From Vampirovibrio sp. (lineage in GTDB: Bacteria; Cyanobacteriota; Vampirovibrionia; Vampirovibrionales; Vampirovibrionaceae), in NCBI GenBank assembly GCA_021323475.1, contig JAJQJM010000003.1:1-52997 (forward strand): DNA of 52,997 nucleotides. The letters are read 5' to 3'. Shown here piece by piece: positions 2,027 to 13,800 of the stretch. The translations under genes and the position numbers were made by a program. Numbering within the stretch: position 1 is the first letter of the stretch; each line of letters starts with the position of its first letter. The notes under the pieces were generated by a model, which did not search any database, had not been told where the DNA came from, and was given only the letters and a program-made list of their open reading frames with translations.

Positions 2027-5000
2027 ATGAGTTCCCGGTGTATCGATAACAGACTGGGTAGCGCAATTAATGCACTATATAAAGCCTCTGACGAGTTTCG
2101 GGACGAAACCGGTTTTTGGGATGCTTTGCTGAGGGAAGCCCTGCTGTTTTTTGGCAGTGATTACGGAATGCTGCTGCGCTGTTCTGCCGGAGAAACCGGG
2201 TTAAAGCCGCAGGATTGTCAGGTGTTGGCGGCGACTGAACCGTTCAGGCTTCAGGAAATGTCCGGCTTGCTGCCGGAATTGGCGACGATTTTGGAATCAG
2301 GCAACCGCCTATGGGTGCAGACTGGCGAAAAAAGCCGTGGCTTCTGGCTGGTACCGCTTATTGCAGCGAATACAGCGCCCTTCGTGCTTTGCCTGGAAAC
2401 GGTTGAGGAAAGCTCGGCTGAAGATTTCAGGAACGATTTCAGGACGGATGATTTTTGGGACGCCGCCTCGGCCTTTGTTAACACGGCATCTCTCTTGCTG
2501 CGAACGCTGGAGGGCTGCTTACCCGAAGCTTCCTCAAAAACCCAGGACAATGGAACTATTCATTGTCAGCCGGTAGACAGCACCCAAGAACAAGGTAATT
2601 TGGTTACCGAGTCGGAACGGCTTGATATCTATCGCAATGCGTTTAACCGGGCCGTTGTAGGCAAAGCGGTGGTAACGCCTGATGGAAAGTGGGTGATGGT
2701 GAATCCCGCCTTCTGCGAGATGATGGGGTACAGCGAGTCGGAGTTGCTGGGCCGGTATTTCACCGAGATTACGCATCCGGACGATAAATGCGTCAATTTG
2801 CATTTGCTGCATCGGGTTGCCAAAGGGGAAATCAATTCGCTGGACTTGGAAAAGCGTTATATTCACAAGTCCGGCAGAATCGTGAATGCCCGGCTCCGGA
2901 TTTCCAGGGTGCAGGACAAGGACGGGACCGATTTATATCGGGTAGTCGACTTTGTGGACATTACACCTCAACACGAGCTGATTTCCCTGTACCGGGAAAA
3001 AGAGCAGTTACTGAACGCGGCTTTTCAAAACGCGCCCATCGGTAAAACCATCATTAGCCTCACTGGGGAATGGGTAGCGGTGAATGCCACATTTTGCCAA
3101 ATGGTGGGCTATACCGAGGAAGAGCTGATAGGCAAGGAAAGGGATAACCTGATCCTGGCAGAGGACCGGCAGGCATTTCGGGATTTTGTGAAGCAGGTGA
3201 CGGCGGGACAACAGACTCGTTGCCAGATTGAGCAGCGGTATATGCACAAGTCCGGCAAGGTGATCATGACCGAGGCGCATATTTCAATGATTCCCGGAAA
3301 TGACGGGAAACCTCAATACTTTATTTCCCAGGTGCAGGATATTACCCGGCGCAAGCAAATGGAAGAAGCGGTGCGAATGGGGCAGGAAAGTCTGCGCAGT
3401 GCCTTCGATCACGCCAGTATCGGGATGGCGCTGGTGTCCCCAGACGGCGTATATCTGAAAGTGAACTCGAAATTGTGCCAGATTACCGGCTACAAGGAGT
3501 CGGAGCTGATTGGCTTACGCATTGCCGATATTACCCATCCCGACGATATTCAGGAAGACATGCTCCTGGTTAAACGGATGCGGGAGCGAGACATCGACTC
3601 TTGCGAAGTGGAAAAACGTTATATTCATAAAAACGGCCATATCATCTGGATTCTACTGACGGCATCCGTCGTTTCCGCTAAACCGGACGGGGAAGTATTA
3701 TATTTCGTCTCGCAGATGCAGGACATTACCGAGCGCAAACGGGTGGAGCAGGCCCTTCGGGACAGCGAGGAAAATTTCCGGCGTGCCTTCGACGATGCGT
3801 CGACCGGTATGGCCATCATGTCGCTGGACGGTTATTTTTTAAAGGTCAATTCCAAGTTGAGCCGAATTACCGGTTACACGTCCCAAGAGCTGCTGTTGAA
3901 GAATTTTCAGAGCATTACTTACCTGGAAGATTTTGAAACGGATTTCCAATTCTGGCAAAAAATGATGACCGGAAAACTACAGACATGCGAATATGAGAAG
4001 CGGTATATTCATAAGCAGGGCTATTTGGCCTGGATTCTGCTGACCGGCTCCAGTGTGCGGGATGAGCATGGCAACCTGATGTATTTTGTGATGCAGATGC
4101 AGGATATAACTGAGCGTAAACGGGTAGAGCAGGCTCTTCGGGACAGTGAGGAACGGTTCCGCAGCGCGTTCGACCATGCCAGTATCGGGATGGCGCTGGT
4201 GTCTCCTGAAGGTCGCTGGCTTAAAGTCAACCGCATCGTAACCAAAATTACCGGTTACTCCGAAGAAGAATTGTTGGCCATGGACTTCCAGACCATTACC
4301 CACCCGGATGATTTGCCCATTGATTTGAGCCTGTTCGAGCGGATGCTTCAGCGCGAGATTGAGACCTATCAGATGGAAAAGCGCTACATTCACAAGCATG
4401 GGAATTCAGTCTGGATCCAGTTGAACGTGTCGCCGGTTTATACGCTGGACGGGCAAATCGCTTACTTTATCGCCCAGCTTCAGGATATTACGGATCGCAA
4501 AACCGCGGAAGAGCAACTGCGCAAAGCGAAGGAGGAAGCGGAAGCGGCCGCCAGCGCCAAATCCGAATTCCTGGCCACCATGAGCCATGAAATCCGGACG
4601 CCTATGAACGCGGTGCTGGGAATGGCCGCCCTGCTGGAAGCGACCCCCTTGACGGAAGAACAGCGCGATTTGCTGCACACCATCAAAAGCGGCGGAAATA
4701 CGCTGCTGGGCATTATTAACGATATTTTGGACTATTCTAAGATTGAGTCCGGAAAAATGGAGTTGGATTATCAGCCTCTGGAGCTGAAAAGCTTTATTGA
4801 GGAGTCGTTCGCGTTGTTCCGGCAGGAGGCGAACGGGCAGGGTCTGTATTTATCCTATGAAATTAACGAGAATGCACCGGCCGTTATTCTGGCGGATTCA
4901 GTGCGTTTACGGCAGATCATGGTCAATCTGCTGGGCAACGCGGTGAAATTCACCGAATCGGGCTCCGTGCAGGTATCGGTCAGCAGCAAGGATAAGCCGG

Positions 5001-6082
5001 ATGAAAACGGCCTGTTCAAACTGGATTTTCAGGTGCGGGACACGGGCTGCGGCATTCCTTCCAATAAATTGCAGGATATTTTTGATTCCTTTACCCAGCT
5101 TGCCCCGGCTACATCCCGTAAATATGGCGGAACCGGCCTGGGGCTGGCTATTTGCAATCGGTTGGTTCAGTTGATGGGCGGTTTTATTTGGGTGGAAAGC
5201 GAAGTGGGCAAAGGTTCCGTATTCCATTTTTCCATTCAGTCCCGTGTGGTAAGCTGGAAACCGGTTCGAGCCACACTGCCTTCCTCCGGAATTTATATGT
5301 TTGATTCGGAATTAGCAACCAAATATCCCCTTCGTATCCTGGTGGCGGAGGATAATCCCGTAAACCAGAAACTGATTTTGCATATTCTTCAGCGGTTGGG
5401 TTATCAGCCGGTTCTGGTTGATAACGGTTGGAGTACTCTCGCCAAGCTGGAAAGCGATACGTTTGATCTGGTGCTGATGGATATTCAAATGCCGGAGCTG
5501 GACGGCCTGGAAGCAACCCGCATGATTGTGGAACGTTTTGGCGCGGAAAATCGGCCCCGGATTATCGCCATGACCGCGTTTGGCTTAACGGAAGACCGGC
5601 AGCGGTGTATGGAAGCGGGCATGGATGACTATATCAGCAAGCCTATTTCCGCCCCGGAGATTGAGCAGTTGCTAAAGCGCTGGTCCCAGTGGAAATCCAA
5701 CGCGAAACTGGGTGCCAAAAGCGCGATTGAAGGAACCATGCTGTTTTCCCGCATCGGCAACGATATGGAAGCCTTGCAGGAAATGATCCAGATTTTTGAA
5801 GAGGATTGCGTTCGTCTGCTGGAGGCAATCCGGGTAGCCCTTGAACAGCCGGATGCTGCTGCCCTGAAGCGGCATGCCCATGAACTGAAGGGTGCTTGCC
5901 TGGCGTTAAGTGCCAGCCATATGCGGGATTTGGCCGCTAAGTTGGAAATGAACGCCAAGCTGCAAAAGCTGGAACAGGCTCCATTGTTGCTGGAAGCCCT
6001 GGAGACTGAGTTCCAGAAAGCCAAAGCGGAATTGCACCAATTAAGCAAACTGTCCCCTCCGTCCAAAATTAATTCAGCTTAA
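2027..6082 (+). CDS. Cytoplasmic multi-PAS hybrid histidine kinase (5x PAS-PAC, HisKA, HATPase, REC, HPt)
   Basis: Five AF..A..G...EKRYIHK..G...DIT units; H-box EFLATMSHEIRTPMN; NLLGNAVKFT, DTGCGI, GGTGLGL; receiver VAEDN/LMDIQMP/SKP; HPt AHELKG. Confidence 0.95.
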   Translation: MSSRCIDNRLGSAINALYKASDEFRDETGFWDALLREALLFFGSDYGMLLRCSAGETGLKPQDCQVLAATEPFRLQEMSGLLPELATILESGNRLWVQTGEKSRGFWLVPLIAANTAPFVLCLETVEESSAEDFRNDFRTDDFWDAASAFVNTASLLLRTLEGCLPEASSKTQDNGTIHCQPVDSTQEQGNLVTESERLDIYRNAFNRAVVGKAVVTPDGKWVMVNPAFCEMMGYSESELLGRYFTEITHPDDKCVNLHLLHRVAKGEINSLDLEKRYIHKSGRIVNARLRISRVQDKDGTDLYRVVDFVDITPQHELISLYREKEQLLNAAFQNAPIGKTIISLTGEWVAVNATFCQMVGYTEEELIGKERDNLILAEDRQAFRDFVKQVTAGQQTRCQIEQRYMHKSGKVIMTEAHISMIPGNDGKPQYFISQVQDITRRKQMEEAVRMGQESLRSAFDHASIGMALVSPDGVYLKVNSKLCQITGYKESELIGLRIADITHPDDIQEDMLLVKRMRERDIDSCEVEKRYIHKNGHIIWILLTASVVSAKPDGEVLYFVSQMQDITERKRVEQALRDSEENFRRAFDDASTGMAIMSLDGYFLKVNSKLSRITGYTSQELLLKNFQSITYLEDFETDFQFWQKMMTGKLQTCEYEKRYIHKQGYLAWILLTGSSVRDEHGNLMYFVMQMQDITERKRVEQALRDSEERFRSAFDHASIGMALVSPEGRWLKVNRIVTKITGYSEEELLAMDFQTITHPDDLPIDLSLFERMLQREIETYQMEKRYIHKHGNSVWIQLNVSPVYTLDGQIAYFIAQLQDITDRKTAEEQLRKAKEEAEAAASAKSEFLATMSHEIRTPMNAVLGMAALLEATPLTEEQRDLLHTIKSGGNTLLGIINDILDYSKIESGKMELDYQPLELKSFIEESFALFRQEANGQGLYLSYEINENAPAVILADSVRLRQIMVNLLGNAVKFTESGSVQVSVSSKDKPDENGLFKLDFQVRDTGCGIPSNKLQDIFDSFTQLAPATSRKYGGTGLGLAICNRLVQLMGGFIWVESEVGKGSVFHFSIQSRVVSWKPVRATLPSSGIYMFDSELATKYPLRILVAEDNPVNQKLILHILQRLGYQPVLVDNGWSTLAKLESDTFDLVLMDIQMPELDGLEATRMIVERFGAENRPRIIAMTAFGLTEDRQRCMEAGMDDYISKPISAPEIEQLLKRWSQWKSNAKLGAKSAIEGTMLFSRIGNDMEALQEMIQIFEEDCVRLLEAIRVALEQPDAAALKRHAHELKGACLALSASHMRDLAAKLEMNAKLQKLEQAPLLLEALETEFQKAKAELHQLSKLSPPSKINSA

Positions 6083-6109: not shown

Positions 6110-7528
6110 TTAAGGCCAGCGTTCAAACGCCTGGGCGGCCCATTCGCTTAGAACGTATGCCTGGTTTGGCTCTGCGCCCAGAATTCGAATTAATGCTTTC
6201 TGCTGTAGATTGAAGAGCAAAGCATCCAGTGTTTCCGGTTCCTGATGTTCGAATTGTTCCAAAAGTTCCGCCTGCGTCATATAGCCACGCTGATGCAGCA
6301 GTTTTAACGCCTTCAGGTCATCCGGCTTCAATTCCAGCAAGACCTGGGCCACAGACCCGGCTAAGCCACGCTGGTCATTAATGGCTGCTGTCGGCTTTTC
6401 GGGTTTGGATGCAATTTTTCTCTTGGGTTGAGTGGGAGAAGCGGAATTGCGGATAGCTTTCGTTGTTAAATGCAGGTTAGCGGAAGATGGCAACGCTGTT
6501 TTCGCGGTGGCGGATATTACCGCTTGTACCGGGAGCGCTTGCTTTCTATCCGTCGGTTGAGCCTGCGATGGACTGTCTGTTGTTGGGGGAGCCTCTACAG
6601 GGGCGTGATTAGCGCTGGCTGTGGCTGGATTTGAATTGACTGCCGCCGTTTCGTGGAGCGCTTTCTGGTCGAGCACGTCTTTTGTGTCCGACTGGTCTGA
6701 CGTTTTTTCGGAATCCGCAGACTTTCCGGCAGATTCGGAATACCTGGTTTGAATGGCCTCATGAATGTATGCGAGGCGTTCGCTGCCGCCGGGATGGCTG
6801 GAAAAGAAGGCTGCTACCGGGCCGGAATCCGCCGCGAGTTTGCCGAACAGGGTTTCCATGGCCAAGGGGCTGTACCCTGCTTTCACCATGTAATCCAGAC
6901 CGACCAGATCCGCTTCTTTCTCGTAGGGCTTGCTAATGTTGCCTGCCACGTCAAAACCTCTCTGTCGGGCATTCTGCCATGCCTTTGCGCCGACCAGAAA
7001 AAAGGGGTAGGCCAAGCCCCCACTTGCCACTAGGGCGGTTGTGCCTGCCGTAAACAGGGTGGTGTTTACCAAAGCGCGGGTGGCAACCTGCTTTGGGTAT
7101 ACTTTACCGGTATGGCGCTTGGTAATATGGGCAATTTCATGGGAGAGCACCGCAGCCAACTCGTCGTCATTGTCAATCACATCCAACATATCCTTGTAGA
7201 TGCGAATGGTGTTTGGCCCCACAAAGCGCGAGGCGGAAGCGTTCCGGATGTCCCGGTTATCCACTAGGAATAGGATTTTATCGGGAATATCATTGGCTTT
7301 CAGGATTCGATGCCCGACTTTCAGTACCTTTTTCTCGTAGGAGGGGCGATTCCACAGCGGGTCGTTTGCTCCTTCCACGGGGGTACCTTCCTTCGAGGCG
7401 CCGTCCATGGCGCCGCCTTCTATGTTTCCTGCCGCCAGGGCCGCCAATGGAGACAGACAGGCCAGATTGAGTGCGCAAGCCAGTATCAATATCCGGCACC
7501 AAGTCTGAAATCGCATGCAAAGCTCCAT
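6110..7528 (-). CDS. Exported M48-family metallopeptidase with low-complexity linker and C-terminal winged-helix-like domain
   Basis: Signal peptide; DELAAVLSHEIAH, EKEADLVG, AGYSP, FSSHPGGSERL. Confidence 0.85.
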   Translation of the reverse strand: MELCMRFQTWCRILILACALNLACLSPLAALAAGNIEGGAMDGASKEGTPVEGANDPLWNRPSYEKKVLKVGHRILKANDIPDKILFLVDNRDIRNASASRFVGPNTIRIYKDMLDVIDNDDELAAVLSHEIAHITKRHTGKVYPKQVATRALVNTTLFTAGTTALVASGGLAYPFFLVGAKAWQNARQRGFDVAGNISKPYEKEADLVGLDYMVKAGYSPLAMETLFGKLAADSGPVAAFFSSHPGGSERLAYIHEAIQTRYSESAGKSADSEKTSDQSDTKDVLDQKALHETAAVNSNPATASANHAPVEAPPTTDSPSQAQPTDRKQALPVQAVISATAKTALPSSANLHLTTKAIRNSASPTQPKRKIASKPEKPTAAINDQRGLAGSVAQVLLELKPDDLKALKLLHQRGYMTQAELLEQFEHQEPETLDALLFNLQQKALIRILGAEPNQAYVLSEWAAQAFERWP

Positions 7529-7622
7529 CGTTTCATTAATCGCCCATGACTATAGCAGAATGGCTGAGCTTTCAAAAACGATAAATCTTCGGTTTTACAA
7601 AGTTTTGAGAAATGGTTTTCCG

Positions 7623-8216
7623 TTATGGAGGCTGGGTTGAGTAATCATCCGGCGTTGGTGATGCCGCTTGTTCCGGTGCCGTTGGTTCAAGATTCGCCAG
7701 ACGCTTGCCGTCCCGGATGATGATTTTGCCGGGAATGCCAACCACGGTACAATTTGGAGGGATGTCTTTCACCACCACGGAGCCGGAACCGATCTGGCTG
7801 CGCTGCCCGATGGTGATATTGCCCAATATTTTGGCGCCTGCACCGATTACCACGCCGTCTTCCAAGGTGGGATGGCGTTTGTCTTTCCGTTTGCCGGTGC
7901 CGCCCAGGGTAACGTGCTGGTAAATAGTGACGTCATCCCCGATTACGGTTGTCTCGCCAATGACCACGCCCATGCCGTGATCGATAAAAAAGCGCCGCCC
8001 GATTTGCGCCGCCGGATGAATTTCAATCCCCGTCCAGAACCGGCTGATGTGAGAGCCCAGGCGGGCCAGGGTCTTTAGGCCCATCCGCCATAGCCTGTGG
8101 TTGACACGATGCGCCCATACCGCATGCAGGCCCGGATAGCACAGGAATACCTCAACCGGGTTACGCGCGGCGGGATCCCGCTCCAAAACCGCCTTTATAT
8201 CTTCCCGGACGCCCAT
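7623..8216 (-). CDS. cysE: Serine O-acetyltransferase
   Basis: [46 protein letters not shown], hexapeptide repeats. Confidence 0.96.
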
Positions 8217-8316
8217 CCTGACTCCTCTCTCAATTCAACTGGAAGCGGTGACATGTTCACGATTTGCCTGCCGATCATCGGTGTTGAGACTATGATTTTA
8301 TGCCAAGCCGTGGCAA

Positions 8317-8347
8317 TTGACAAAAGCATTCGGTTTTTGTCTACTAT
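8317..8347 (+). promoter_or_regulatory. Possible sigma70-type promoter
   Basis: TTGACA (8317-8322) and TACTAT (8342-8347); the 19-nt spacer is long. Confidence 0.4.
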
Positions 8348-8371
8348 ATTCAACGTCAAATACGGGTTTTT

Positions 8372-8548
8372 ATTGCCGTGCAGTCAGCAACTCGCAAGCA
8401 GTCCCATATTAATTGGAATCGCCGACGCTCTCGAAGGACCGGGTCTTGGGCGCTTTCAAACTGCCTTGGCAATCTCCGCTAGCGGAATTCGCTTCAAAAG
8501 CCAGAATGAATCCCCGAGATCCAAGTCGATAACGGGGATTCATTTTTT
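8372..8548 (+). ncRNA. Candidate structured leader or small RNA ending in an intrinsic terminator
   Basis: attgcc/ggcaat plus gcagt/actgc closing stem, inner cgctc/gggcg and aggac/gtctt stems, tccg-ctag-cgga hairpin, then a 12-bp terminator stem; no recognised Rfam family. Confidence 0.4.
8504..8548 (+). terminator. Intrinsic terminator hairpin
   Basis: Perfect 12-bp stem aatgaatccccg / cggggattcatt with a 16-nt loop, followed by T run. Confidence 0.75.
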
Positions 8549-8623
8549 CCGGTTTTAACGCACAAAACCGGTTGGTCCCGATTTTATATACTCACCATTC
8601 ACCAGGATAGATTTTTACAGCCG

Positions 8624-8986
8624 ATGAGCCAACAACCATTTCAATTTGCCGACCGGGAGTCCCAGGCCAACGCCTTGGGGACATATCGGCATGATGTGGC
8701 CTATACGGCGGCCCTGAAATCCGAACAGGCGCTGGCTTTGGGTAGCTATCGGCACGATGTGGCTTATACCGCGGCCCTGAAGTCAGTTCAAGCTCATGCC
8801 CTGGGCAATTACCGGCATGATGTGGCGTACACCGCCGCCCTGAAATCCGCCCAGGCCATGTCCCACCAAGGGGGCACTAGCTTCAAGGGACAGTTAACCG
8901 AAGATTCAACCATCACTGGTGTTGAGCAATGCTTAGCACCAGTGATTTTTTTGGCGGCTCCGGCTGAGAAAGGCAAGGCCGCCTGA
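8624..8986 (+). CDS. Small protein with three 21-aa tandem repeats (QAxALGxYRHDVAYTAALKSx)
   Basis: Repeats differ mostly at synonymous third positions, which supports coding in this frame; stop overlaps the next start (TGATG). Confidence 0.8.
   Translation: MSQQPFQFADRESQANALGTYRHDVAYTAALKSEQALALGSYRHDVAYTAALKSVQAHALGNYRHDVAYTAALKSAQAMSHQGGTSFKGQLTEDSTITGVEQCLAPVIFLAAPAEKGKAA
8663..8857 (+). repeat. 3x 63-bp coding tandem repeat
   Basis: Units 8663-8725, 8726-8788, 8789-8851 plus a partial fourth (QA). Confidence 0.95.
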
Positions 8987-10713
8987 TGCTGGGAAGAGTG
9001 GATGGGTTCCTGTTCAACCCGACGGTGAATAAGACGCTGGCCGCCCTGGATGACAGCAAGTCCATGTTCTCGGTGGCCTCGCGGGATTTCATCGACAGCA
9101 GCGGCCGGACTTACATGGAATACAAGCGGGACAAACACGGCGGCCGCGAGCGGTTGCTGGAAGAGTTCCTGACGTTTGGCATCTGGGGTTTCGGGGTGCG
9201 GGCCATGAAGCAGGCCTACGACGCTTCCGTTATGAATATGCCCAAACTCGGCATTAAGCTGCCGGATTTGGATATCGATCTGCTGCCCAAAGCCACCAAA
9301 GCTGGGGATGATAGCCTGCAGAAGCTGAATATTGGCCTGGTTGAGAAATTTGCAGACAAGTTCAAGGATGCGGGTCAGTATAACGACTTGCTGACGGTGA
9401 TGAAATCGCATGGGTTGCAAAGCGCGTACCGCAAATCCAGCATTCTCAAGTTTATCGTGGCCAGCGGTGTACCCGCATTGGCCATCGCCATAGGGGTGCC
9501 GACCCTGAACCAGTGGCTTACCCGGCAATCCCTGAACAAGGAGAAGGCCGCCAAAACTCGGCAGCAACCCGCTTCCTCCCAGTTCGGCAACGTCAATAGC
9601 GCCAAACCGCCACTGGCAAATGGGCCGCAACAGCCGATGCAGGCTGGTGCCCAGGCGGCCAACCATTTTGCCCAGGTCACCAATTTTAACGGGTATCCCT
9701 CCTCGGCGGCACCGACCGGGCGGCAACCCTTCCGGATGAACATGCCCAATGTCGCGTCACCGTTTCAACAGCCGGGCCAACATCCTGTTCAGAAACCGGC
9801 TCAGCAGACCGCAGCAGGCAAAAACGGGCAGGTGCAGTTTGGCGGCATGGCCGATGTGGCTTCCGCCATCCTGCAAAACGAGCGTTTGAATACGCTGCTG
9901 ATTGACGGCACCATCAGTGGCGGACGGGTGCTGAAAGCCAGAAACCCGATGGAGCGCTTTGAAATCTTTTTCCGCGAGGCGGCGATTATTGCCTTCCTGT
10001 ACTGGATTCAACGGCCGTTGCAGGATGCCATCGGCAAGCAGATGGGCAAGGCTTGGAAAATCCCGGCGGATATGGAATTCAAGACCATTCAGTATCTGCG
10101 GAAACAGGAACATTACGCTAAAACCCCGTCCCTGTTCCATCAGGAATACAAACAGGGCCTGACCCACATTGCCGAAGCGATGGGCAAAAAGCTGGTGCCG
10201 GGCAAAAATGGCGCGTCCGCTAAAGACGTGCTGAGCGAGATTCTGAAGAGTTCCGATAATAAGGAAAAAGCCCTGCTGGAATCCGTTTACGATTACTTCC
10301 TGAATCACCGCGATAGTGCCAAGAGTAAAAACATGATTTTTGAAACCGCGATTGATTCCGGCCTGATTCCCACCATTTCCCGCGAGAAGCAAAGCATCTT
10401 CTCGGAAATGAACCCCATCAAGAATCAGGATTTAACCAAGAATAAATTCCTGGATCTGACCAAAAAGATTGATACCAAGGGCATTTTCTCCCTGATGGAA
10501 AGCCTGGAATCGTTGAGTGAGAAAACCATCAAGCAGCCCGCCCACCTGGAAGAAATGCTGAAAAAGACAATGCGCTTACGCTCGGGTGCCTGGTTCGCTT
10601 CCAATGCGGTGTGCTTCACCTTCTTGTCCGTGGTGATCCCCGTGTTGCAGCATTACATCACCTACAAGAGAACCGGCAAGAATTACTTCCCAGGTGTCCA
10701 GCAGGAAGCCTGA
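8986..10713 (+). CDS. Hypothetical membrane protein with two homologous halves joined by a Q/P/N-rich linker
   Basis: Each half has a D..SGR/GGR..E.F motif, a hydrophobic segment and a final hydrophobic helix ending P.L.Q/H..T; the linker ends in QVQFGG. Confidence 0.8.
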   Translation: MLGRVDGFLFNPTVNKTLAALDDSKSMFSVASRDFIDSSGRTYMEYKRDKHGGRERLLEEFLTFGIWGFGVRAMKQAYDASVMNMPKLGIKLPDLDIDLLPKATKAGDDSLQKLNIGLVEKFADKFKDAGQYNDLLTVMKSHGLQSAYRKSSILKFIVASGVPALAIAIGVPTLNQWLTRQSLNKEKAAKTRQQPASSQFGNVNSAKPPLANGPQQPMQAGAQAANHFAQVTNFNGYPSSAAPTGRQPFRMNMPNVASPFQQPGQHPVQKPAQQTAAGKNGQVQFGGMADVASAILQNERLNTLLIDGTISGGRVLKARNPMERFEIFFREAAIIAFLYWIQRPLQDAIGKQMGKAWKIPADMEFKTIQYLRKQEHYAKTPSLFHQEYKQGLTHIAEAMGKKLVPGKNGASAKDVLSEILKSSDNKEKALLESVYDYFLNHRDSAKSKNMIFETAIDSGLIPTISREKQSIFSEMNPIKNQDLTKNKFLDLTKKIDTKGIFSLMESLESLSEKTIKQPAHLEEMLKKTMRLRSGAWFASNAVCFTFLSVVIPVLQHYITYKRTGKNYFPGVQQEA

Positions 10714-10833
10714 GCCTTATTATCATCTGACTGGGCCTGATTGCCGTATTCTGTTCGTTAAACGCTAAACAATAGCTATTGCCGCCACCTGTTTTAGCGT
10801 TTTGTCTTCAGTATTTTGTTCGGTTGCGTATGG

Positions 10834-13800
10834 CTAGTTGACCAGAAAACCGACCGGCAAGTCCTTCAGAATGTCGGAAACATCAATTTCCGCCAGATGT
10901 TTGCCTTTGGCTCTGATGTCCTCTTTGCTCAGGACGTTTCGGAACGCATAATTCCGCATACTTTCCGGCAGCGTGATCGCCGTGTCTTTCCATAGCCGTT
11001 TCCCGCAGGGCATCCCATGTTTACGCATGCCCATGCTGTAGAGTAACCGTGGCGCAACTGTTATGGCTACTTTGTCCTCCCATTGCCGGGCAAAGGCTAT
11101 CACATGCTCAGACCCGGAACCGGTGACATCCAATGGCACATAGCTCCCATACTGGAACAATTCCCGGTTTCGCCCACGATAGTGCAGCACCGAGGCGATC
11201 AGGTATTGCTTGATGCGCCCGTCCGTCAGGTTATCGGTCAATTCCAGCAGAAACTTAGTCAAATGCTTGGGATCATCGGAGTAAACGGCTTCCTGAATCG
11301 GCCCCATATGAGCTTGCCTCAGCGAATAATCCACAGGCTGGCGGTTATCCGGGTCCACCATGCTGAAATCCCATAGCTCCGTCCCCTGGTACAGGTCGGG
11401 TACGCCGGGACAGGTCAGTTTGAGCAGGGTTTGAGACAAGGAATTGAACAAACCAAACCGGGCCACAACGCGCTGGAAGGGCACAAAATCATCCAGAAAC
11501 AAGGATGAAGGCCGTAACAGAACCCCACGGATGAACTGGGCCAAAGCATCCTCGTACTCTGTATCCGGGTTAATCCAACTGGTATTGGTTTTCGCCTCTT
11601 TGGCCGCTTTCATCATGTATTGAATCATCCGCTCAGCCAGGGACTCCAAGCCCTCCTTTCCCGGTGACGTCAAGGGCCAAACCCCGATCAGGGCCTGGTA
11701 AAACAGGTATTCCTCATTGACGGAGGGGGTCTGTTCCCCGTCCTGCAAATGTTTGCGCCAGTGGCGATGGAAGCGCCGCCATTGGCTCACATGGCGATGC
11801 CATTCCTCCGGCATCTCGGAAAGGACGCTGATGCGGGCGCGCACGTCTTCCGAGCGTTTGGTGTCATGCGTGGACGTATCCAGCAGCGTATTCGGCGTCC
11901 GTTTGCTCCGGTCCAGGTTGTGATGGTGGAAAGTGGACATGGAAATCCCGAACTGGTGGGGCTCGCCTCCCACTTCGTTCAGGGACACCAAGCGGTTATA
12001 CCGGTAGAAAGAGGTATCTTCCAGACCCTTTGCCATCACCGGGCCGGAATACTGCTGGAATTTCATGGCAAACCGGGTCACCGCCTCCAGGAAGGGTTCC
12101 TCGTCCTCCGTGTCGCCATTGGCTAGGGGGCGGGTGACGGATGACTTGCTTGCCTCACCCGCCGTGGTGCCTGCTGCAACCGGGTTATTGGCCCCGGCGG
12201 CTATCCCGTCTCCCAGGAATTCCGGCGCGAATTCCAGCAGCAACACGGAATGAATAAAGTCGAAAATGCTGGTATCAATGGCTTTGCTGCGCCGCTTGGC
12301 CAGCCGGACGGCCCATTCAATGTATTCGCGGTCTTTTTTGCTGATCTGATCCGGCGTAATGTAGGTGCGGTATACCGGGAAGCAGGCAACCACCTCCATC
12401 AACGCGTCGCGAAGGTTGTGCAGCGTGTAATCGCGGGTGCTCCAGTTCCGCTTGGAAAGCCGGTTCAATTGCTGGCTCAAAACCCCCAACTCGCTGTTCA
12501 GGGTGGTTTTCATAATCAGCTTTTTGCAACGGTACACCAGATCATCAAAGTCCACCTTCTCACCCAGCAAGCGCTCGTAAATGCGGGTGAATTCCTTCTC
12601 CTCATCCTGCTTTACGAAGATGCCGTTGACCAGGTTGGTGAATTCGTAACCCGTAGTGCCATGCACGGTCCATTCCTGCGGCAGCCGCTCAAACGGGGCC
12701 AAAATCTTCTCAATCAGCACGTAAAGCGGCAAATCCTCGGAGCTGAGCTGCCAGTCGGTGCGAATAGGCTTACCCAGTCGCTTGGCGGCCTCCTCTTGCA
12801 AGCGGTGGAAGTAGGCGGCAGGGTCGTACAATCCGTCCGGGTGGTCAATGCGCAGGCCGGTCACCAGGCCCTGTTCCACCAGTTCCATAATCAGCTCGTG
12901 CGTGTCGTTGAAAACCCGCTGGTCTTCCACTCGCACCGCCACCAGGTCGTTGATGTCGAAGAACCGGCGGTAATTAATCTCGTCGCTGGCTACCCGCCAG
13001 TTGGACAGCCGGTAAGCCTGCTGTTCCAGCAGGCGGTGCAAGCGGGTCTGATTGGTGGGATCGTCTTTCTGCGGGATGAAATCCTGCACGTTTTCATGGA
13101 TAAACGTGACGATATCCGGCGTTTGCCCGCATAGGATGACCAGCCGGTTCAGGCTGATGACCCGCTCTCGGGCGCGTTCTTCCTTCTTATCGAAATCATA
13201 ATTGGTGACCACCGGCAAATGCTCGAATGAGGACATAATGCTGCGGTACTCCAGAAAGGCCGGGGTGGTTTTGCCCAGGCGGGCTTCCAGGGTTTCCAAC
13301 CGGTGGCCCAGAATAATGGGGTAAGACACCGGATTGATGGGAATGGCGTTTTCGTAATAATCCAGCCAGAAACGCCCGTTTTCCGGTGCGAATCGAACTT
13401 TAAGCTCGCTATTGGTCAGGATTTTACCGTAAGCATCCCCCAAAATGGGTAGCAGAATCTTGTTTTGCAGGTCATCCGTCAGCGGATGCCAGTCAATATC
13501 AAAATAATCGGCGTACATGGAGGAGCGGCCATTCTCCAGCACGTCCATCCACCAGGGGTTGTCCTTGCCTGCGCCCATATGGTTCGGCACAATGTCCAGC
13601 ACCAGGCCCATGCCATGTTCCCGCAGAATATGGGATAGGTGCTCAAACTCCTCCTGGGTGCCAATTTCCTGGTTGAGTTGCTTGTGATCCGTAATGTCGT
13701 ACCCGTGAGGACTGCCCTCGCGCGCCTTAAGTAGCGGAGAGGCATAACAATGGCTGACCCCCAGTCGGCTGAGGTACGGTACCAGCTCAATAGCGTCCCG

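Follow-up and report, generated by a model that had tools for sequence, protein, structure and literature searches.

A conserved repeat-protein gene with an internal terminator downstream of a predicted arginine attenuator in Vampirovibrio-like bacteria

In this study we describe a locus of Vampirovibrio sp. within a stretch of 52,997 nucleotides (contig JAJQJM010000003.1 of assembly GCA_021323475.1; hereafter, the window), in which a small open reading frame (ORF) encoding a repeat protein of 120 aa (8624..8986, +) is followed by a gene for a 575-aa membrane protein (8986..10713, +) and preceded by an arginine-rich leader. The repeat array (8672..8860, +) comprises three 21-aa units of the form A-L-G-x-YRHDVAYTAALKS-x-Q-x-x (residues 17-37, 38-58, and 59-79), each with an identical 13-aa core, YRHDVAYTAALKS (nt 8684-8722, 8747-8785, and 8810-8848), and a single Arg codon, which is CGG in all three; Tandem Repeats Finder reported the region 8684-8856 with a period of 63, 2.7 copies, and 76% matches. 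A preliminary description of this DNA had noted the three units and their invariant core, which are present as it described them, and had proposed purifying selection on the amino acid sequence, a proposal that the codon comparisons support.

Indeed, when the 15-codon cores of the three units in the window are compared pairwise, 20 codon differences are synonymous and 3 non-synonymous, and over 43 units from 14 loci such differences amount to 6484 versus 1969, with mean column entropies of 0.31, 0.18, and 1.34 bits at codon positions 1, 2, and 3, respectively. Since the copies vary at third codon positions, the protein sequence is under selection. Moreover, in DNA contigs of near-identical strains, 5/5 single nucleotide polymorphisms (SNPs) of the ORF body fall at third positions, with 2 further SNPs in the variable tail, and the ORF is open in 14/14 loci, its end always overlapping the start of the next gene. 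Judged by this codon pattern, the small ORF is translated and strong purifying selection acts on it, and the triple-repeat protein is a real and strongly conserved gene of Vampirovibrio-like bacteria.

Homologues of the small protein numbered 46 at E ≤ 0.01 (word-indexed search, 1368 candidates) and are recorded from Vampirovibrio chlorellavorus, Vampirovibrio sp., and 'Melainabacteria', with ORF lengths of 86-164 aa. The repeat number, for which variation had been suggested as a check, ranges from 2 to 4 units in the 36 proteins read, which also carry a second conserved motif at the C-terminus, (F)TG(V/A)EHCLAPV(I/F)F; the N-terminus is variable in the family alignment. When 41 related genomes were searched with a profile, the small gene was detected in 11, always as a single copy, and the carriers are all 8 genomes of the window's genus together with three more, which represent three further genera of that family by one genome apiece. 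A metagenome scan returned only 5 loci, of which one (L036) was spurious. The small protein has no Pfam or NCBIfam family; in searches of both proteins of the pair against these databases nothing scored above cut-off, a weak match to PPI (PF22386; best E 0.004) lying under the 27-bit cut-off. For the small protein the ESM Atlas gave no usable match, and no paper containing the motif strings was found in the literature.

The two genes of the locus are closely joined. A Shine-Dalgarno-like GAAAGGCAAGG and a TGATG stop/start overlap were read at 8968..8988 (+), the reported overlap with the 575-aa ORF being real, and in relatives GAGG or AAGGAG followed by an ATGA overlap occupies the gene junction. 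The idea of a two-gene system, also put forward in the preliminary description, was borne out by a synteny check, in which a homologue of the membrane-protein gene lies directly 3' of the small gene in 14/14 distinct loci and, from coordinates, in genome G016; likewise, the small gene adjoins the membrane-protein gene in all 11 of the genomes that carry it. In genome G013 (locus L017) a deletion has fused both genes in frame into one 702-aa ORF, with the hairpin described below kept. This true fusion came from the genome loci and not from the search for longer homologues, where the four-repeat form turned up in only two ORF calls that were over-extended (213 and 255 aa). Apart from the pair, the gene neighbourhood is not conserved among related loci.

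The membrane protein, specific to Vampirovibrionales and unassigned to a family by Pfam or NCBIfam, has two helical modules and a Q/P-rich disordered linker at about residues 200-286, with only two strongly hydrophobic segments (153-171 and 536-559). It had been called duplicated, which a BLASTP comparison of its N half with its C half (E 1.7) does not bear out. The AlphaFold2 (AF2) model is confident, with a pLDDT of 80.5 and a pTM of 0.76, and matched no PDB fold, the best Foldseek E being 0.33 and the best VIA Z 6.1, which is within the noise for helical models. The family comprises 251 representative clusters at E ≤ 1e-3, its Atlas neighbours are Melainabacteria only, and the gene is present in 28 of the 41 related genomes. 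The predicted complex of the small and large proteins scored 0.00, which gives no verdict and was counted neither for nor against their association. A paralogue of 978 aa (G000:C180:9398-12325, -) consists of the N module, a Q/P/S-rich linker, a longer C module, and a terminal hydrophobic helix, like the membrane protein in its layout; its 400 nt of upstream sequence showed no Arg leader.

The C-terminal motif of the small protein has a counterpart in RNA. An internal terminator, T2 (8912..8953, +), is formed by a 16-bp stem (8912-8927/8931-8946), an AAU loop, and a run of seven U (8947-8953), in the last tenth of the ORF and 33 nt ahead of the membrane-protein start codon. Its predicted free energy is -25.2 kcal/mol (z -7.06; 0/200 shuffles as stable) and, as read from its sequence, it is built like an intrinsic terminator. 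The T2 stretch encodes I-TGVEQCLAPVIF-L, and the conserved protein motif TGVEHCLAPVIF mirrors, in coding form, the hairpin together with its U-run. The hairpin occurs at the same place in 14/14 distinct loci with DNA, the fused locus included, and a run of at least five U follows the stem in 12/14 (alignment read by eye), with U4GU4 in L017 and a weak run in L007.

In the 14-locus alignment, 9 of the 16 stem pairs have changed on both sides. The T2 cells are paired in 90.2% of cases versus 79.4% in shuffles, 0/500 shuffles reach the observed covariation score, and when the partner arm is slid the pairing is only 31.7-49.1%. The upper stem has been wholly rewritten by lineage (UUGAGC/GCUUAG, GUCGAU/AUGUCGG, GCGACA/UGUCGC, and UUGAUC/GAUCAA), while in the lower stem a change from GGU to GAU is compensated by one from CCA to UCA. 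An echo of this covariation is visible at the protein level as TG..AP versus TD..(A/S/T)S in P0009, P0023, P0026, P0028, and P0032, the Gly/Pro to Asp/Ser covariation in the peptide being the G-C to A-U covariation in the stem (dual coding). In this context, the conserved 'protein motif' is the shadow of an RNA terminator in a coding region, of a kind that can mislead motif-based annotation. No antiterminator for T2 was found in minimum free energy folds of the loci folded (10/10), which leaves ribosome occupancy as its likely control.

A regulatory RNA leader had also been anticipated upstream of the repeat ORF, and an Arg-rich upstream ORF (uORF), a terminator (T1), and a predicted antiterminator are found there. 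The uORF (8378..8482, +), of 34 codons if its start is the GTG at 8378, contains NWNRRRSRRTGSW, and its peptide has NRRRSRR, i.e., 5 Arg within 7 codons. T1 (8505..8548, +; stem 8505-8516/8533-8544, U-run 8543-8548) has a predicted free energy of -23.2 kcal/mol (z -4.30; 0/200 shuffles as stable), and a uORF segment at about 8441-8451 pairs with its 5' arm once the 3' arm is removed, in a predicted antiterminator fold. An Arg-rich uORF lies ahead of the repeat and membrane-protein unit in 8/8 genomes of the window's genus, the T1 hairpin GAAUCCCCG...CGGGGAUUC was flagged in 6/8 of the genus loci (L001, L002, L004, L005, L007, and L008), and a similar hairpin is present in L031. A search of the window (7500-11000) against Rfam at E ≤ 1 gave only a chance snoRNA row, and five related loci at the gathering threshold gave tRNAs only.

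Further upstream, a putative promoter, P1 (8317..8347, +), was recognized by eye only, from TTGACA at 8317-8322 and a TCTACT/TACTAT-like -10 element; its GGCAATTGACAAAAG stretch recurs in relatives (L006 output), and a consensus promoter scan did not list P1. Between T1 and the repeat ORF lies a conserved element (8560..8590, +) consisting of GCACAAA (8560-8566), about 17 nt, and a TTTATAA-like box (8582-8590). GCACAAA is invariant in 10/10 aligned loci and, with the TATA-like box, may represent a second promoter or a regulator site.

A leader of like build precedes arginine genes elsewhere in this genome. In a genome-wide scan, a near-twin leader (..IRRRRSRRTFG.. plus a terminator) was found on contig C96, directly upstream of genes for ArgJ, an amino-acid kinase, a class-III aminotransferase, and argininosuccinate synthase (Pfam), that is, argJ-argB-argD-argG. 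In the extracted locus (L038; G000:C96:6800-12300), this leader is at about 5035-5190 on the minus strand, and a TTGACA-N17-TAATTT promoter precedes it. Of the 41 genomes, 7 have argJ and 14 have an argG scoring over the Pfam cut-off; an Arg-run uORF is upstream of argJ in 6/7 argJ-bearing genomes, with a terminator also flagged in 4/7. By prediction, the leader at 8378-8548 combines the Arg codon run and the terminator/antiterminator pair of a leader-peptide attenuator, a device that also stands before the cognate biosynthetic operon.

Furthermore, in genera without the repeat ORF, the membrane-protein gene is itself preceded by Arg-run uORFs (..NNRRRPRR.., ..KRRRRPR.., and ..QQRRRRP..), each followed by a strong terminator, and in L015, L018, and L020 two tandem modules of uORF and terminator stand before it. 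The second uORF of L018 (5666-5854) spans its terminator and overlaps the ATG of the membrane-protein gene, like the repeat ORF of the window. These statements rest on per-locus readings instead of an automated count, which returned an Arg-run uORF plus terminator in 15/24 loci, missing L003-L006 through its thresholds and taking in the doubtful L011 and L035.

The use of Arg codons differs between the two stages. The seven Arg codons of the leader uORF are CGC (four), CGA (two), and AGG (one), with no CGG, versus CGG at 4/4 in the repeat ORF of the window, 47/58 in its orthologues, and 39/43 in the repeat units of the 14 loci, where third positions other than that of the Arg codon vary freely. 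Genome-wide, CGG makes up 31% of Arg codons and CGY plus CGA 59%; the arg-operon genes avoid CGY/CGA, which account for 11/38. These figures agree with the selective-charging theory (PMC1183508), in which the isoacceptor used by leaders is the one that starvation affects most, while others remain charged. The codon pattern fits an ORF built for quick translation under arginine shortage.

Taken with the T2 covariation, the fixed gene pair, and the near-twin arg-operon leader, it leads us to read the locus as an instance of ribosome-mediated attenuation in which a conserved repeat protein is encoded by the leader ORF, with its own internal terminator, behind a predicted and hitherto undescribed arginine attenuator. 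For the finer arrangement we propose that the small ORF forms the second stage of a two-stage attenuator and that its product most likely serves the membrane protein as an accessory or N-terminal module in the cytoplasm, a combined reading to which we give an even chance. In stage 1, when charged tRNA-Arg is scarce, a ribosome would stall in the Arg run, the antiterminator would form, and the polymerase would pass T1. In stage 2, a ribosome close behind the polymerase on the repeat ORF would block the T2 hairpin and then reinitiate at the overlapping start of the membrane-protein gene, and untranslated or lagging transcripts would end at T2. The use of CGG, instead of the CGY/CGA codons by which stage 1 would sense arginine, would keep translation of the repeat ORF fast in arginine limitation. 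There is precedent in that translation represses terminators that lie late in coding regions, as reported in PMC4824070.

The product of the ORF would consist of 2-4 copies of a helix of roughly 15 residues, and a site of action together with the membrane protein, on its cytoplasmic side, is suggested by the adjacency, the stop/start overlap, the fusion, and the absence, by eye, of any signal peptide. The latter may in turn be concerned with arginine acquisition. Most of the related genomes, including most of the Vampirovibrio genus, have no detectable argG, which suggests arginine auxotrophy and a possible need for an outside supply. Induction on arginine shortage would be a first functional lead for this orphan membrane-protein family and its repeat partner, and leader-peptide attenuation would gain both a new amino acid and a new lineage with this predicted arginine regulon in the non-photosynthetic sister group of the cyanobacteria.

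Several observations weigh against this arrangement. The fusion is confined to one lineage (1 among the best 150 of 251 representatives, E ≤ 0.001), and 17 of the 28 genomes with the membrane-protein gene have no repeat ORF, so that the membrane protein does not depend on it and in most genera works without it. The repeat core is nearly invariant and the membrane protein only 25-67% identical over the same loci, which would imply a target more conserved than the partner and is odd for a co-evolving pair. In addition, the AF2 model of the small protein shows three isolated helices and no fold (pLDDT 50.5), and an ultra-conserved ORF of 120 codons is far beyond the needs of a pyrL-type leader. 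An RNA ended at T2 would be without a stop codon and hence costly, and the promoter-like element between T1 and the ORF could allow stage 1 to be bypassed. Only the leader ties the membrane protein to arginine, the co-distribution of its gene with argG loss being a weak trend (present in 21/27 genomes without argG versus 7/14 with argG, the genomes being related and not independent). Finally, none of the sequencing runs recorded as RNA contains the locus; run X20 ('RNA?') consists of short adapter-bearing pieces and leaves 8674-8945 uncovered.

Known attenuators offer partial parallels to each stage. Stage 1 resembles trpL, hisL, pheL, thrL, leuL, and ilvL in its run of codons for one amino acid, its terminator, its competing antiterminator, and its cognate operon, and differs from them in that arginine would be sensed, in occurring in Vampirovibrionales, in having no Rfam match, and in that a non-biosynthetic membrane-protein gene would also be controlled. 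Searches of the literature available found no bacterial arginine-codon leader peptide or argJ attenuator, and no work on leader peptides or attenuators in Melainabacteria/Vampirovibrionia; the word 'arginine' does not occur in PMC2965389.

Stage 2 recalls the pyrL/pyrBI leader of Escherichia coli, where a translated leader ORF runs through the terminator to the structural gene, where it ends, and a following ribosome blocks the hairpin. The pyrL ORF, of 44 codons, spans the attenuator, and the sequence of its peptide is not thought to matter. As reported in PMC5021804, tight coupling across pyrL prevents the terminator and a stall upstream raises termination. The layout here is similar, with an upstream ORF translated on the evidence of its codon pattern and, within it, an intrinsic terminator placed 33 nt before the structural gene and lacking a predicted antiterminator. 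Unlike pyrL, a short leader with an unconstrained peptide, the present ORFs have 86-164 codons (120 in the window) and encode a near-invariant repeated peptide that can be fused to the downstream protein, with a separate amino-acid-sensing stage ahead; in pyrBI the signal is UTP-dependent pausing of the polymerase. An attenuator-encoded peptide that also acts as a product is known in peTrpL of Sinorhizobium meliloti (14 aa); the likeness is one of concept only, and the sequence is unrelated.

The near-invariance of the core beside a fast-evolving partner gene would also suit another explanation, namely that the repeats are nascent-peptide sensors acting in cis, in which YRHDVAYTAALKS units slow or arrest the ribosome on free arginine or another metabolite, uncoupling it from the polymerase so that T2 forms, and the mature protein has little or no function. 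We consider this unlikely, even though an invariant target such as the ribosome would account for the conservation, the position upstream of a terminator without an antiterminator and within an arginine-controlled leader is apt, a copy number of 2-4 would be expected of a tunable delay, and at pyrL a stall upstream of the hairpin raises termination, as mentioned above. Conserved upstream peptides that regulate a downstream gene include TnaC, SpeFL, the fungal arginine attenuator peptide, and SecM/MifM. Of these, TnaC, the fungal arginine attenuator peptide, and SpeFL are metabolite-sensing nascent peptides, and the genes regulated by SecM/MifM encode membrane-biogenesis factors.

Unlike arrest peptides, the present proteins carry 2-4 repeats with no known arrest motif noticed by eye, and the putative output is an in-ORF terminator, not Rho access or Shine-Dalgarno unmasking. 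Across homologues, the stretch that separates T2 from the last repeat ranges in length from about 10 to 35 codons, a length of 86-164 aa is great for a purely cis-acting peptide, and the in-frame fusion with the stop/start overlap suggests that the polypeptide is kept and used. A more specific form, which we judge quite unlikely, would have the tandem YRHDVAYTAALKS units sense free arginine or a related metabolite and decide T2 by their summed delay, in series with the tRNA-charging sensor, so that bacteria would have a multi-copy equivalent of the fungal arginine attenuator peptide; if true, the membrane protein would be made only when free arginine and charged tRNA-Arg are both low. Repeats acting as sensors in cis would, if confirmed, be a new kind of nascent-peptide regulator.

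Conservation of the core would equally suit a stable repeat protein, either leucine-rich repeat (LRR)-like or a helical adaptor, whose ultra-conserved surface binds another conserved target, e.g., the M48 peptidase or FtsH, and which is not a subunit of the membrane protein, T2 tuning the ratio of the two products. This we hold to be very unlikely. The unit does have an M48 gene next to it both in the window and in G013, and the membrane-protein gene an FtsH gene in L015 and L018, and with E 3.2e-12 the family profile matches a Roco protein in its LRR domain (5il7_A). However, single repeats of 5il7_A match only at i-E 0.11-11, the Asn position of the LRR unit (LxxLxLxxN, 20-29 residues, with a conserved Asn or Cys ladder) is a Tyr, the period is 21 versus 22 with one core position missing, the best single-sequence phmmer match was at E 0.32 to unrelated proteins, and 0/18 family members matched Pfam LRR models at E ≤ 10. 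Kinship with LRR proteins was therefore judged improbable, the profile value being a sum over repeats of weak periodic matches. Against an adaptor of any kind stand the isolated, low-confidence helices of the AF2 model and the non-stop mRNA that a ratio-setting terminator before the stop codon would give.

The preliminary description had proposed, among other readings, a processed signalling peptide or a precursor of a ribosomally synthesized and post-translationally modified peptide (RiPP), and had compared the YxH of the core with biarylitides. In its strongest form, a multi-core RiPP or secreted signal precursor would be matured by enzymes encoded elsewhere, with the membrane protein as exporter or maturase, and it is true that tandem identical cores in variable copy number (here 2-4) are shared with cyanobactins, graspetides, and the YxH biarylitides, that a large protein without a known fold could be a new enzyme or exporter, and that an M48 peptidase is nearby in two genera. 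Precursor-enzyme fusions also occur in some RiPP classes, such as borosins and BURP-domain cyclases. Nevertheless, we find this highly improbable. As the preliminary description itself had observed, no maturase is adjacent: genes of the P450, radical-SAM, ATP-grasp, YcaO, and lanthipeptide types are all missing beside the pair in the window, and no maturase was found among the 36 neighbour ORFs scanned (of 93 listed, from 10 related loci). The genome-wide search for maturases that had been advised gave no P450 or YcaO match in a genome that is 94.9% complete, and one unlinked SPASM protein without a repeat peptide beside it, the ATP-grasp and LanM families not having been searched genome-wide; the YxH likeness is left with no accompanying enzyme.

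Unlike RiPP loci, the pair has no linked family of maturase, protease, or exporter, and its flank is RNA structure, the conserved C-terminal motif covarying as a hairpin and not as a recognition sequence beside a variable N-terminus. Neither a signal peptide nor a double-glycine leader was seen by eye, control by an arginine attenuator would suit metabolism over secondary metabolism, and one genus has the repeats joined in frame with the membrane protein. The radical-SAM/SPASM protein, the only one found in the genome, is of 445 aa (G000:C125:3019-4356; 454-1791 in L046). Lastly, that the repeats are RNA or DNA elements, such as tandem aptamers or sites bound by proteins, within a long leader that is not translated, is barely credible, for while the leader has two terminators and the Arg codon is nearly fixed as CGG, the entropy is concentrated at third codon positions, the ORF remains open and ends on the next gene's start in every locus, and there is no Rfam match.

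Regarding the surroundings of the unit, the M48 protease reported nearby is confirmed at 6110-7528 (-), and a hexapeptide (serine-acetyltransferase-like) gene at 7623-8216 (-) also lies beside the unit in the window; M48 and hexapeptide genes likewise flank the fused unit of G013 (L017; 3965-4618 and 7814-8584). In L015 and L018 the FtsH gene is convergent to the membrane-protein gene. An antisense ORF (8809-9726, -; 305 aa) spans the junction of the pair, covering where the small ORF ends and the membrane-protein ORF starts, and is probably a shadow frame of these moderately GC-rich genes. Upstream of the M48 gene, a hybrid sensor kinase of 1351 aa is encoded (2027-6082, +), with several PAS-like repeats, a receiver domain, and an HPt-like tail recognized by eye.

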